Origin: Eledone cirrhosa
Taxonomy: Eukaryota
Assembly (NCBI GenBank): GCA_964016885.1
Contig: OZ024743.1
Location: 83,700,001-83,764,000, forward strand
DNA: 64,000 bases
Reading direction: 5' to 3'
The translations under genes were made by a program, and so were the position numbers. This document shows positions 271 through 63,441 of the stretch, in pieces; within the stretch, counting starts at the first letter, position 1; the number at the start of each line of letters is the position of its first letter. The notes below the pieces were generated by a model that worked only from the letters and a program-made list of their open reading frames with translations, did no database searches and had not been told where the DNA came from.

Positions 271-478
271 AACGAAGGAAAAGTGGTAAGGAACCAGATG
301 GACCATAACGCACCAAAGTACTCAATATTTAGGGTAGTAGAGTGGGTAATAGGAACGAGTAGGACCCCGACGGGTGAGCTCAAGCCGTTTCGACGGCTAA
401 TTCTGGACTAAATCTTTAGTCCAGAATTAGCCGTCGAAACGGCTTGAGCTCAGCCGTCGGGGTCCTACTCGTTCCTAT
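271..478 (-). mobile_element. PLE pLTR fold-back remnant, family A (copies at 8577-8786, 27908-28110 and, partial, 50448-50524)
   Basis: About 62-bp inverted arms centred near 413, flanked by (TA)n. Arms carry the 3' half of a hammerhead (GAAACGGCT...AGCCGTC). The unpaired tail carries the CTC...TTGAG hairpin at 321-342. Near-identical copies occur elsewhere in the window. Confidence 0.75.
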
Positions 479-520
479 ATATATATATATATATATATAT
501 ATATATATATATATATATAT

Positions 521-1190
521 ATCATCGCTTCGCTACGCATTTCCAATATTTTTAATGCTTACACTATTTTTAATACTTATATTATTTCTCTACGCACAGA
601 CTATAACAATCATATAAAGAGTTCATCACCAGATCAACCACCTTAACACTCTCGATTACCTGCTTAAGTGCTTCTATTACACATAACTCTCTGCCACACT
701 ATATAAACAAGACGCACGTGCTTGCCACACATATAACCTTTGCACTATATAACCGCTTAATTTCATGTTGTATTTTAACCTGTATTTTTTATTGTATCTT
801 TTAATATGAATGTAATTTCTAAGTGTGTACTGCCACACTAAATGCTATAATGAATGTTGACCCACAATATTTGCATATGTATCTGTATGTCTCTTGGCTG
901 ATAAGGAGGTCATATAAGTGTTCATTCAATAATAAATTGCTCCGAAGAATCCAAACCTCGGTTTGGAAGAAACAGTTGTAAGCATAAAAATGTTTTGAAC
1001 AGTTCTTTGATTCTTATAATTCATATAACTACTCTGTAAATCATCTGATGTTTTTACATTGAGCTATTTAACTTGCTGGTAATAAGGTAGTACTATATTA
1101 CTGCCTACCACTATTTAGGGTTTATAAAAATATATATAACTGCAAAAGGTTTTTGTATTTGCATAACCATAAATAGTATAATTAATACTA
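521..1190 (+). mobile_element. PLE 3' end (pLTR plus tail) between (TA)n tracts
   Basis: Contains a hammerhead at 938-984 and the tail hairpin at 1032-1063. Confidence 0.6.
938..984 (+). ncRNA. Minimal type I hammerhead ribozyme (CCGAAGA core variant)
   Basis: TGCT-CCGAAGA-a-TCCAAAC(CTCG)GTTTGGA-a-GAAA-CAGTTG-TA-AGCA. Confidence 0.7.
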
Positions 1191-2319
1191 TATATATATA
1201 TATATACATATACATATATACATATATACATATACATATATACATATACATATACATATACATATATATATATATATATACATATACATATACATATACA
1301 TGTATATATACATATATATATATGTATATATATATACATATATATATATATATATATACATATACATATACATATACATGTATATATACATATATATATA
1401 TGTATATATATATATATACATATATATATATGTATATATATATACATATATACATATATATATATATATATATATATATATATATATATATATGCATATA
1501 TACATACATATATACATACATAAATATATACATATATACATATATATATAAATATACATGTATACATACATATATATATATATATACATATATACATACA
1601 TATATACATATATATATATATATAAATATATATATATATACATATATATATATATACATATCTAAATACATATATACATACATATATACATATATATATA
1701 TATAAATATATATATATATACATATATATATATACATATATACATACATATATATATATACATATATACATACATATATATATATATATATATATATATA
1801 TATATATATATATATATATACATACATATATACATATATATATACATATATATATATATGTATATATATATATATATGCATATATATATATATATATGTA
1901 TATATATGTATATATATATATGTATATATGTGTATGTATATATATATATATATATGTATATATATATATATATATATATATATGTATATATGTATATATA
2001 TATATATATATATATATATATATATATGTATATATATATATATATGTATATATATATATATATATATATATGTATATATATATATATATATATGTATATA
2101 TATATGTATATATATATACGTATATATATATATATATATATATATATATATATATATATATATATATATATATATATATATATGTATATATATATATATA
2201 TATATATATATATATATATATGTATATATATATATATATGTATATATATATGTATATATATATGTATATATATATATATGTATATATATATATGTATATA
2301 TATATATATGTATATATAT
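1188..2319. repeat. Compound (TA)n/(TACA)n/(TATG)n microsatellite
   Basis: Read directly; source of the YI-repeat ORFs. Confidence 0.95.
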
Positions 2320-60026: not shown

Positions 60027-60296
60027 TATGTAATAAACAACATAAGATAATTATTTCATTTACCAGTGGTTTCTTGAAGACAGGTGTTTGTGTCTGTCTT
60101 CAGTCGTCAGAATGAATAGTATGAACACGATGTTTTTTATTCATTCTGACGACTGAAGACAGACACAACATCTGTCTTCAAGAAACCACTGGTAAATTAA
60201 ATAATTAACTTATGTTTTTAATTACATAACTAATAAGCTCTGTAGCCTACATAGAGCACTCTTTTTTCCTGTACCTTTCTGACGGAAATACTTCAT
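60027..60296. mobile_element. Fold-back, family H, with hammerheads at 60055-60116 (-) and 60140-60200 (+)
   Basis: TTCATT-CTGACGA-c-TGAAGACAGA(CACAACA)TCTGTCTTCA-a-GAAA-CCACTGG-TA-AAT; tail hairpin at 60238-60256. Confidence 0.85.
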
Positions 60297-60488
60297 ATAT
60301 ATATATATAGGGTGGAGCATAAAGAACTCTCACATCTTATTTTATATCCCTTCAAAATGTGGGAGATCTTCATGCCCCACCCTGTATATACATATAGGCA
60401 TTCTTCCTCTAGATCTCTTTCTCTCTCGCTCTCTCTCTCTCTCTCTCTCTCTCTCTATATATATATATATATATATATATATATATAT

Positions 60489-63441
60489 ATAAAATATTAA
60501 AAAAATAATGAATAAAACAATGAAACAGTTCCTTATATTAAACAAAAAAAGTTCATTATTTAACGATCGTTTCTAGGATATATATGTGTTAGAATTGGCA
60601 TGCACATTCAACAGATCTATGTACAAAATTATACAAAATTATACAAACTATCAAAATTAAATATACATACCCAACACATATATATATGCCGTCTTCAGAA
60701 ATAATGAAATATATTTATTGATAATAACAACAATTCAAAATTTCAGGTCCGTTTGGGAACAGAGTTCAAATTGACCAATGAAAATACAAAAAATTTTATG
60801 CAGTTTGGTGTGTGTATATACATGTAATTAACTTCATACACATATTTACATAAAGATATATGTTCACATGCATACGCATGCCAAAAAGATGTATGCAAAT
60901 ACAAAAATTCAAGGCTAATGTCTCTGTAAGTCTATAATCCACAAATAAAATGCGTATAGACACATAAGTATGAAACAAATGTATACACACATTCATATAC
61001 TCACACATATTCGTACACTCACACCCACACGCGCGTATATGCATAAACATACACATAACTACGAACATACATGTGGGTGTATATATATATATATATGTAT
61101 ATATATATATATATGTGTATATGTATCTCTATTTATATGTGTATATATGTATATGTATATACCTTTTTCTTTGTATGTCTGAGTTGTGTGAGCGTGTAGT
61201 GGTGTTTGTATGTATATACGCATATATGGATGTGTATGTATTTGTATATATGCGTATATGTAAGTGCGTATGTGTGTATGGGTATATATCTATGTCTATG
61301 TATGAGTATGTATGTGTGTGTATGTATGTGTGTGTGTATGTATGTATGAGTGTATGTGTGTATGTATATGTGTGTATATATATGTATGTATATGTATGTA
61401 TGTATGTATATATGTATGTATATGTATATATATGTATATGTATATATATATATATATATATTTATTATATATGTGTATGTGCGTGTGTGTATATATATCT
61501 TTATATATGTGTATGTGTATGTATGTGTAGGTGTGTGTGTGTGAGTATATATGTATGTGTGTATATGTGTATGTATGTGTATGTATGTGTATGTATATAT
61601 ATATATATATATATATATATATATATATATATATATATATATATATGTATATATATATATATATATATATATATATATATATATGTGTATGTGTATGTGT
61701 GTATGTGTGTATATATATATATATTTATGTATATATATATATTTATATGTGGGTATGTATGTGTATGTGTGTATATATATGAGTGTATTTATATATATAT
61801 ATGTATGTAGGTGTGACTGTATATATATGTATATATATATATATGTATATATATATATATATATATATATGTATATGTATACGTGTGTATATGTATGAGT
61901 GTGTATATATATACGAGTGTTGTGAGTGTATATATATATATGTATATATATATATATATATATATATATATATATATATATATATATATGTGTGTGTGTG
62001 TGTATATATATATATATATGTATGCGTGTATGTGTATATGTGTGTAAAAAAATATATATATATATATATATATATATATATGTGTTTATGTGTGTATGTG
62101 TCTATGTATTTATATGTGTATATGTATGTGTCTCTATATGTATGCGTCTATGTATGTGTATGTGTATTTATATGGTATGTGTATGTATATGTATGTGTAT
62201 GTATGTGTTTATATATATGTGTATGTATATGTATGTATATGTATGTGTGTGTATGCGTGTGTATTTATTTATATGTCTATATGTATGTATATCGATGTAT
62301 ACTTTATATTTTACTTGTTTGTATATATATGTGTGTGTATATATGTGTATATGTATGTGTATGTATATATATATGTGTGTATATATGTGTATATATATAT
62401 GTATATGTATATATATATGTGTGTGTGTGTGTGTATGTGTGGATGTATATATATATATATATATATATATATATATATATTTTCTTGATATATTTCTTTT
62501 TTCTTTTTTCTTTTTCTTTTCTTTTTATTTCTAAGTTTATAGATACATCTATAAATAGGCAGCCTGCCGAAACCGTTGAATACTGACCTCTCCCCCCCTC
62601 CCACCTAATTTCTGTATCCTGATCTAAATATGTGTGGCAGTGTTTATGTGCGTGCATTAATGTCCATATGCTTATGATAATACTATATGCACATATATAT
62701 GTGTGTGGGGGTGTGTGTGTGTATGTATGTTCGTAGTTATGTGTATGTTTATGCATATACGCGCGTGTGGGTGTGAGTGTACGAATATGTGTGAGTATAT
62801 GAATGTGTGTATACATTTGTTTCATACTTATGTGTCTATACGCATTTTATCTGTGGATTATAGACTTACAGAGACATTAGCCTTGAATTTTTGTATTTGC
62901 ATACATCTTTTTGGCATGCGTATGCATGTGAACATATATCTTTATGTAAATATGTGTATGAAGTTAATTACATGTATATACACACACCAAACTGCATAAA
63001 ATTGTTTGTATTTTCATTGGTCAATTTGAACTCTGTTCCCAAACGGACCTGAAATTTTGAATTGTTGTTATTATCAATAAATATATTTCATTATTTCTGA
63101 AGACGGCATATATATATGTGTTGGGTATGTATATTTAATTTTGATAGTTTGTATAATTTTGTATAATTTTGTACATAGATCTGTTGAATATGCATGCCAA
63201 TTCTAACACATATATATCCTAGAAACGATCGTTAAATAATGAACTTTTTTTGTTTAATATAAGGAACTGTTTCATTGTTTTATTCATTATTTTTTTAATA
63301 TTTTATCTTGACTCTGTATTCCGTTTATCTTTCACCGAAAGTGATTTTTCATTGCATCTCTTCTTTCCATGATATCCGGATTACATTGAGTTCTTCATAC
63401 GGATTGGACACTACCGTAAACTCTTGGTAGATTTATCTACA
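60489..63441. mobile_element. Giant fold-back: arms about 60489-61071 and 62722-63306 around a microsatellite-filled loop
   Basis: The same spurious ORF appears on both strands (60796- and 62703+). Each arm carries a hammerhead; the tail hairpin is at 63312-63390. Confidence 0.9.
63087..63243 (+). ncRNA. Hammerhead with a stem II insert of about 118 nt (mirror at 60552-60708 -)
   Basis: TTCATTATTT-CTGAAGA-...ATATATATGTGTTGG...CTAACACATATATAT...-GAAA-CGATCG-TT-AAATAATGAA (10-bp stem I). Confidence 0.8.

Follow-up and report, generated by a model that had tools for sequence, protein, structure and literature searches.

Paired bulged RNA hairpins lie just 3' of both insertion ends in Hydra-clade Penelope-like elements: a candidate anchor of the reverse transcriptase

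A stretch of 64,000 nucleotides (nt) from Eledone cirrhosa (contig OZ024743.1, positions 83,700,001 to 83,764,000), hereafter the window, was analyzed within a 3.0-Gb, (TA)n-rich animal genome, designated as G000. A bulged RNA hairpin in the tails of insertions in this window is specific to Penelope-like elements (PLEs) of the Hydra clade and is not a feature of PLEs in general. Its paired bases covary, and it is usually present twice per full-length element, with each copy just 3' of one insertion-end site. This double occurrence was not noticed in an earlier reading of the window made without database searches (the sequence-only reading). It is likely that the hairpin is a conserved signal of Hydra-clade PLEs, and that each copy anchors the reverse transcriptase (RT) so that copying starts ~5–9 nt to its 5' side.

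The coding copy in the window consists of one open reading frame (ORF), in which the RT is followed by a C-terminal GIY-YIG endonuclease (EN). The sequence-only reading had rightly placed one copy of the motif in a PLE with RT and GIY-YIG sequence; this is the broken ORF at 25242–27356 on the minus strand. Pfam gives the GIY-YIG domain only a sub-threshold match (E 0.067). The protein P0001 includes CNCRYPNAC, which corresponds to the CxCx5C linker, as well as CDLC and CQH, and the same pattern is seen in L051 and L062 (loci are cited by L numbers); CCHH is absent from P0001 by eye. RIRWK and SDKT (the RWK motif, and DKT for DKG) are found in the family member L002, in a region missing from the window copy. 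Both (TA)n targets and a hammerhead in the terminal repeat, which are features of the Hydra clade, were observed, with descriptor matches in the window and in foreign loci. The window PLE and the family of the hairpin at 320 (the 320 family) have non-canonical hammerhead cores. The assignment to the Hydra clade is based on these motifs and is putative to that extent, and the ribozymes are predicted hammerheads. About 28,000 first-look candidates for the RT piece of the window PLE were found in G000. The family with the CCGAUGA core (window 24745–24863, minus strand; L010) has many long open frames.

Hydra-type proteins are also matched by the long tailed elements L048, L059, and L062 and by the parent elements L045, L073, L095, L103, and L272. 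The carriers of the hairpin had been regarded as unrelated families, a view that could not be kept: each one traced to a coding copy is Hydra-type. Neither are the 16 sites listed in the sequence-only reading 16 separate families, since 321/27959, 18053/28258, and 37585/54134 are relatives by sequence. An exact-pattern search of G000 found no coding parent for the 24541 family, and is a weak test.

The foreign set includes 88 Hydra-type loci outside G000, from metagenome contigs and genome bins, and is divided into 61 families at 80% identity. Among its hammerhead copies with sufficient sequence downstream, 53 of 73, from 36 of 45 families, have the hairpin 32–71 nt after GAAA (0.6 in shuffled sequences). 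The other 20 comprise 10 that reach (TA)n first and 10 with neither hairpin nor (TA)n. A strict descriptor matched the flanks of 41 of the 88 loci in sense orientation and of 5 in antisense orientation. The claim of a conserved cis-signal of PLEs is upheld by covariation in G000 and in the foreign loci, and has to be narrowed to the Hydra type, not PLEs or hammerhead elements at large. In the Naiad and Chlamys consensi, four 8-mers were found at 17 places outside the Hydra file, with one full hairpin by eye (near part 23), about the level of chance; line breaks may hide matches there. A protein structure model of the Hydra type (predicted local distance difference test score 91) has TERT and DRT2 as its top fold matches (template modeling score 0.27–0.36). 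The model and the fold search only confirm the kinship with TERT and DRT RTs, and the fold search does not locate an RNA-binding site.

Two further observations were made on the foreign loci. Contigs with Hydra-type PLEs occur in genome bins labelled bacteria (L189–L198), likely as host contamination. Hairpin 2 of the metagenome locus L120 (position 437) is identical letter for letter to hairpin 1 of a G000 family (L062:4492-7645; L039:5107-5455), save for the outer pair, which is G-C versus A-U, and the proteins of the two are only distantly alike.

The full motif is larger than first described and reads R-CUC-Y…R-UH-GAG-Y, then ACUNU. All 16 listed sites do read CTC...GAG. For the site at 51451–51468, the C-G top pair holds, with a TT bulge, on the minus strand; the plus-strand reading would be A-G with TG. 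The helix has one further pair below CUC/GAG, which is Watson-Crick in 15 of the 16 examples (10 A-U and 5 G-C; A-C at 1032). As for the description of the elements as hammerhead-bearing, a CTGA core is present at most 200 nt upstream in 5 of the 16 and GAAA(C/T) in 12 of the 16, counts in which the site at 51451 was scored on the wrong strand. The hammerhead can be recognized in only part of the window copies, most of which break off within the ribozyme.

The predicted excess over shuffled sequence was confirmed. With the descriptor CTC-Y, stem, R-TH-GAG and local dinucleotide shuffles (n = 100, microsatellites masked), the window gave 22 versus 3.7 with a stem of at least 3, and 13 versus 1.3 with a stem of at least 4. 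In an out-of-sample set of 40 × 10 kb of G000 (20 shuffles; copies of one family counted separately), the corresponding numbers were 68 versus 25.4 and 37 versus 10.3, and requiring the extra outer pair gave 24 versus 2.7. In this set TT is the most enriched T-first bulge (30 versus 8.8), and the excess of GA bulges (38 versus 7.7) is tentatively attributed to CT/GA repeats. None of the best 150 of 259 Rfam rows is at gathering score; nearly all are microRNA models, and no hammerhead is among them. Two other candidate functions were rejected. A splice acceptor before the hairpin does not fit, as AG precedes CTC in only 2 of the 16 examples. A dimer link through self-complementary GAGYRCTC fails on the fourth base past the helix, which varies freely (C 36, T 25, G 19, A 11 of 91).

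Covariation was analyzed with two tables. The first (n = 91) was anchored on the first CTC without a pairing rule and includes some mis-anchored rows; the second was re-anchored on the outer pair only, with 12 rows dropped (n = 79). In the second, 77 of 79 sites have a Watson-Crick pair above the bulge (53 C-G and 24 U-A), and the next two stem pairs are Watson-Crick in 51/75 and 37/51. When no pairing rule is applied, the top pair is Watson-Crick in 73 of 91 (permutation mean 41.6), with no excess in slid controls. In an RT tree built from 45 sequences, all Hydra-type and with the labels of the 8 G000 rows assigned manually, hairpin 1 requires 8 and 7 changes for its U-A and C-G states, 3–4 of them forced by strongly supported branches; the covariation of this pair, already proposed in the sequence-only reading, is real. 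The core covaries too, with CAC/GUG in place of CUC/GAG in L189 and L196. Inside the helices G-U was observed 6 times and A-C 0 times, and this imbalance points to the sense strand. The bulge is UU in 54, UA in 16, and UC in 15 of 91 rows, the 6 UG rows being likely mis-picks, and one family (L048, L058) has a single-U bulge. The bases 3' of the helix are kept as A, C, U, any, U (74, 77, 80, -, and 79 of 91), the loop between the halves is ~5 to 65 nt, and the bases before each hairpin are AU-rich.

Full-length elements usually have the two hairpins between the ribozyme and the ORF. The G000 masters with two hairpins are L004, L045, L073, the L239 type, L095, and L272. In the foreign ORF leaders (n = 63, many of them truncated; the counts for L138 and L196 include overlapping calls), one hairpin is found in 48 and two in 27, and hairpin 2 is ~31–84 nt before the ORF match. 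A motif-blind screen for (TA)n, arm, inverted arm, a tail of 35–200 nt, and (TA)n revealed 55 elements in the window and 80 × 10 kb of G000. The hairpin is 2–16 nt past the arm end in 32 of the 55 tails (26 of 47 outside the window), versus 0.15 in shuffled tails. By eye, the 23 misses are 3 decayed copies of hairpin families, 1 with the hairpin 47 nt into the tail, 5 of one non-Hydra PLE family, and otherwise unassigned repeats. Hairpin-less arm-plus-tail families in (TA)n were also observed at L040:6315-6536 and L096:1582-1723, at L044/L089, and at L096:2598-2936 with window 34700–34990.

Every (TA)n-bounded 3' end was placed on five coding masters in 570-nt windows. L095 (nested element in the leader), L216 (sister of L222), and L001 (duplicate of the window) were left out, and the reduced second hairpin of the L222 type was entered by hand and accounts for 4 of the 42 ends. 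A hairpin begins 1–16 nt past each of the 42 ends (5–9 nt past 35 of them); it is hairpin 1 for 23 ends and hairpin 2 for 19. The distance between the two sites follows the hairpin spacing (184–188 versus 184, 108 versus 106, 78–79 versus 76, and 66 versus 67 nt). Since both ends are just before hairpins, the tail length equals the hairpin spacing, as in the family of the insertion at 272–475 (80 versus 78). A second hairpin was predicted past the tail end of this family, and the pattern with CTC 3–10 nt beyond had 414 matches versus 1 for the control. Most of the listed matches shared one reading. A full second hairpin is present in each of the 6 loci opened, and in 3 of these a Hydra-type ORF follows; in L272 this hairpin is 78 nt after the first. 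The ends often join (TA)n with 1–4 nt of microhomology to the template, and some ends have none.

The same sites were indicated by checks separate from the end-calling code. In the L004 leader, 6 of 7 early-stopping genome matches stop at site 2. Read contigs, from runs that may be the source of the assembly, have their best-supported (TA)n loose ends at L004 842, 1023, and 1026 (hairpins at 848 and 1032) and at L245 1297 and 1375 (hairpins at 1311 and 1378), and the read depth drops steeply after hairpin 2. Read ends at L245 1274 and 1363 in two restriction-site-associated DNA runs were rejected as element ends, both being on AATT and taken as library restriction cuts. Among foreign 3' copies, counted after microhomology and with 13 pairs skipped (contig ends or failed alignment), 9 of 14 diverge 0–4 nt before the hairpin.

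Some rearranged copies were also found. In L018, a copy of the window PLE leader has unrelated sequence joined directly before hairpin 1 (position 849). L274 (1508–1765), L276, and L283 contain short tandem or rearranged units, with a 257-nt period in L274, in which the ribozyme's 3' half is combined with both hairpins and the start of the ORF; these are possibly retrozyme-like derivatives.

These observations can be arranged as a mechanism. The PLE protein would bind the hairpins, one RT on each, and the two hairpins would be held by a protein dimer such as that modelled for a Poseidon element. The EN would cut the (TA)n target, and one nicked strand would pair with the AU-rich bases before hairpin 2, so that the tail and the repeat are copied into the tailed end. 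The other strand would prime before hairpin 1, and the repeat would be copied without the tail into the tail-less inverted arm. Head-to-head joining of the two complementary DNAs (cDNAs) would leave inverted arms and a one-sided tail as long as the hairpin spacing, and the short palindromic elements of the window may be early-stopped products of the same reaction. That two copies of one RNA anchor load a dimeric, telomerase-related RT, priming both cut (TA)n strands from two fixed internal points, is put forward tentatively, with slightly less than even confidence.

Several observations weigh against the hairpin as the anchor of the start site. Genomic ends cannot separate internal priming from RNA cleavage or DNA resolution. 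Seven of the 42 ends are outside 5–9 nt, and in the foreign 3' copies 2 of 14 diverge 24 and 53 nt before the hairpin and for 3 the reference lacks a hairpin downstream. Several hairpins consist of only five pairs and are absent from the lowest-energy leader fold, and thus would need protein for stability; both hairpins are formed in L245, and at best one each in L176 and L073. In the G000 families of the L214 and L222 types, hairpin 1 is full and the second position has only a 4-bp GCAC/GTGC stem, and L222-type copies still end at this reduced hairpin, which stands at the expected distance; one of these families has long open frames. Among six published Hydra consensi inspected by eye, the motif is found in three and a variant in two, and Hydra-1_Obim has none; as far as the available entries go, those with the motif are from a coral and two sea cucumbers, and Hydra-1_Ajap has two copies. 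The motif-less L061 family ends at two fixed places within the ORF start, 60 nt from each other, both at AATATCG and without such a hairpin, so fixed ends can arise otherwise. It is another PLE, with a Cx4CxxC linker and no match to the Hydra query, which we take to be Nematis- or Neptune-like. Its ends suggest a different paired start signal, nearer to the Poseidon layout. This family is abundant (window 8456–8535 and 32190–32540; L061:5007-7608; L264, L266, L268, and L270).

The same end map is predicted if the hairpins direct the cutting of RNA 5–9 nt upstream, by the element protein or a host nuclease, and the two RNA 3' ends are copied as in long interspersed nuclear elements (LINEs). Bulged stems are common nuclease substrates. 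However, Poseidon starts internally on a long RNA in vitro (PMC11167929), and cutting would separate the hairpin, on the 3' fragment, from the template that it is meant to hold. This explanation is considered unlikely. It is also quite improbable that the signal acts as DNA, with the GIY-YIG EN recognizing the hairpin in displaced sense-strand DNA and resolving the intermediate just upstream, which would create the tail. Craig et al. (PMC8557442) ascribe the tail to EN-mediated resolution, and the D. virilis EN needed the tail to recognize plasmid DNA (as cited in PMC11167929); G-T pairs are tolerated in single-stranded DNA as well. Against this, a loop varying from ~5 to 65 nt excludes a duplex site, the cDNA strand would have A-C mismatches, and both ends join (TA)n with template microhomology, as expected of priming.

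If the hairpins served the 5' leader as an operator for translation or packaging, where bound protein represses or aids translation once the ribozyme has cleaved, this would account for the short distance of hairpin 2 from the ORF match (~31–84 nt), and the AU-rich bases before each hairpin would allow the ends to be set only by microhomology to (TA)n. Yet leaders and repeats are AU-rich throughout and 0 of the 42 ends lie elsewhere in the 570 nt, the site spacing tracks the hairpin spacing from 66 to 188 nt, and some ends have no microhomology, which makes this view very improbable; a second role in translation is compatible with anchoring of the RT. A chance pattern, or plain homology within a few repeat families, has hardly any probability. 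Some listed sites are indeed copies of one family, and short patterns arise by chance at 10 per 355 kb. However, the motif is at one position in 36 of 45 foreign families, which were separated at 80% nucleotide identity, compensatory switches are repeated on the RT tree, and the slid controls lack an excess.

The features in the window are summarized in Table 1. Of the 13 palindromes in the 320 family, 12 are 99–134 nt in span, which places the fold-back in loop II, upstream of the predicted ribozyme cut site; this fits the copying of uncut RNA. The hammerhead core of this family is UUGAGAA by eye (L272:1333-1415; window 352–475), like the U3-A8 variant reported for schistosome PLEs (PMC4209133). 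The family is also found in head-to-tail arrays with a period of ~3.53–3.54 kb (contig C1 of G000, 91476611–91487261 and 437200349–437210965). Other repeats in the window are a LINE-type RT remnant (21779–23631, minus strand; RVT_1 and weak zf-RVT), a Tc5/pogo-type DDE transposase remnant (6423–7130, minus strand), further decayed pieces of RT elements (41538–42916 and 44600–46527, minus strand, with an RVT_1 match at 45976–46527), and a 21-nt tandem array of 166 copies (13559–16998) with open frames of >1,200 codons on both strands.

Table 1. Coordinates of PLE parts, hairpins, and hammerheads in the window.
Feature	Coordinates	Strand	Remarks
5'-truncated Hydra-type PLE insertion in (TA)n	24630..27615		tail-less arm, ORF remnant (-), inverted arm, tail (+)
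Broken RT + GIY-YIG ORF	25242..27356	-	CxCx5C linker, CxxC, CxH; 79.7% identity with L010's open frame of 727 aa
Hammerhead-like fold in PLE 3' repeat	24745..24863	-	CCGAUGA core, loop II ~90 nt; by eye, no descriptor match
Tail-less arm, ending at site 1 and joined to (TA)n	24630..24710	-	inverted match to 27356-27437
Inverted arm	27356..27437	+	ends at site 1, 8-9 nt before hairpin 1
Hairpin 1 of coding PLE family	27446..27515	+	outer G-C, top U-A, UU bulge
Tail, ending at site 2	27438..27615	+	in full-length copies (L004, L010, others) 5-9 nt more to hairpin 2, then ATG
Hairpin 1	20852..20873	+	tail of palindromic insertion 20549-20951; in parents L073/L103 hairpin 2 is six nt past the tail end
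Hairpin	24541..24565	+	tail of palindromic insertion 24231-24612
Hairpin 1	60237..60257	+	tail of insertion 60023-60294; related L239-type and L045 families have two hairpins
Hairpin 1	18052..18070	+	insertion 17915-18116; parent family L222 with reduced second hairpin only
Complete type I hammerhead	17980..18030	+	upstream of 18052 hairpin; descriptor match
Hairpin 1	28257..28275	+	relative of 18052 family
Hairpin 1	320..343	-	tail of palindromic insertion 272-475; in parent L272 hairpin 2 is six nt past the tail end
Hairpin 1, 320 family	27958..27981	-	
Hairpin 1, 320 family	50498..50521	-	absent from the earlier list
Decayed copy, 320 family	8626..8649	-	first C changed
Hairpin	1031..1064	+	outer pair mismatched; G-C in sibling L037
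Hammerhead-like fold	938..984	+	upstream of 1031 hairpin; descriptor match
Hairpin 1, long loop	63311..63391	+	relative L095 extends beyond the tail, with a second hairpin and a Hydra-type ORF
Hairpin, UC bulge	59205..59259	+	
Hairpin, UA bulge	17773..17798	+	
Hairpin, top pair C-G	36704..36739	+	
Hairpin, UC bulge	37584..37629	+	
Hairpin, 37584 family	54133..54178	-	
Hairpin, top pair C-G	51450..51469	-	siblings L040, L059, L061
Hairpin	30839..30871	-	absent from the earlier list
Hairpin, C-G top pair, long loop	3388..3456	-	absent from the earlier list; siblings L064, L067

The Hydra clade was described as C-terminal EN+ PLEs (Craig et al. 2021, PMC8557442). The elements analyzed here share with it the short length, the single RT and GIY-YIG ORF, the CxCx5C linker, the hammerhead, the (TA)n targets, and the inverted arm with its one-sided tail. 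The tail is given there as 30–40 bp and ascribed to EN resolution, whereas window-type tails are ~60–185 nt and match the hairpin spacing; the word "hairpin" is not in the main text. In Poseidon_Ac (Frangieh et al. 2024, PMC11167929), the RT initiates at two internal sites that flank the tail, the two target strands are cut and extended, the protein is a predicted dimer, ribozyme cleavage is not needed, and priming is said to need no homology. A protein-binding motif was hypothesized nearby and mapped only to 172 nt. The two internal sites flanking the tail, their position 3' of the hammerhead, the AT-rich targets, and the uncut RNA template resemble the Hydra type. However, Poseidon_Ac belongs to another clade, with its sites inside the ORF in an AC-rich stem loop, and the accessible text reports no paired bulged hairpins or cross-family consensus; Hydra-type ends, in contrast to what is said of its priming, often have the microhomology described above.

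The RT-recognition stem-loop of LINEs is a single copy, 5' of the copying start and near the RNA 3' end. In L2-type LINEs and partner short interspersed nuclear elements (eel UnaL2, PMC1636434), it is a short, conserved stem that contains an internal loop or a bulge and is needed in cis for retrotransposition. The Hydra-type hairpin is likewise a conserved fold with sense-strand covariation, but it is paired, each copy is 3' of a mapped internal end, and the sequence and the RT class are unrelated. By analogy, the motif may bind its RT as such a stem-loop does, in a version that is paired and 3' of the start. Stem-loops also limit the template for related RTs, as in the template boundary element of telomerase RNA and SL5 of the DRT10 noncoding RNA (bioRxiv 10.1101/2025.10.16.682844). 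Those boundary stems are 5' of the template and stop copying, whereas the Hydra-type hairpins, each located 3' of an end, would set the start; in tailed ends, copying passes through hairpin 1. No sequence is shared.

Metazoan non-LTR retrozymes are hammerhead-bearing noncoding repeats thought to be moved by PLEs (PMC7229834; bioRxiv 10.64898/2026.07.22.740005). The 257-nt tandem unit of L274, with part of the ribozyme and both hairpins, is like them. In contrast, the short elements of the window are not head-to-tail repeats with full hammerheads; they are single palindromic insertions, mostly cut within the ribozyme, with coding parents. No such hairpin is mentioned in the available portions of the two retrozyme texts. 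Nor is it described in those of the PLE and hammerhead literature searched, which includes PMC4209133, PMC5737381, PMC10085705, PMC6765202, and PMC2377424, and covers neither Repbase reports nor figures. The hairpin is a clade-wide cis-element, apparently not described before, whose position is strongly linked to both ends of the insertions.

The one-sided tail and the inverted arms of PLEs have been a puzzle for two decades, and the only in vitro study shows two internal start sites and not what sets them (PMC11167929). With a short covarying RNA element whose position predicts both ends of insertions in many families, the choice of the start site becomes directly testable. The hairpin can also serve to annotate elements of the Hydra clade and their truncated copies, which are highly abundant in G000, and as a point of comparison for template positioning by telomerase-related enzymes. 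If two such anchors do load a dimeric RT, this would solve the puzzle of the tail and the inverted arm for the Hydra clade, and would provide a portable 20-nt start signal for RNA-templated, double-ended insertion.

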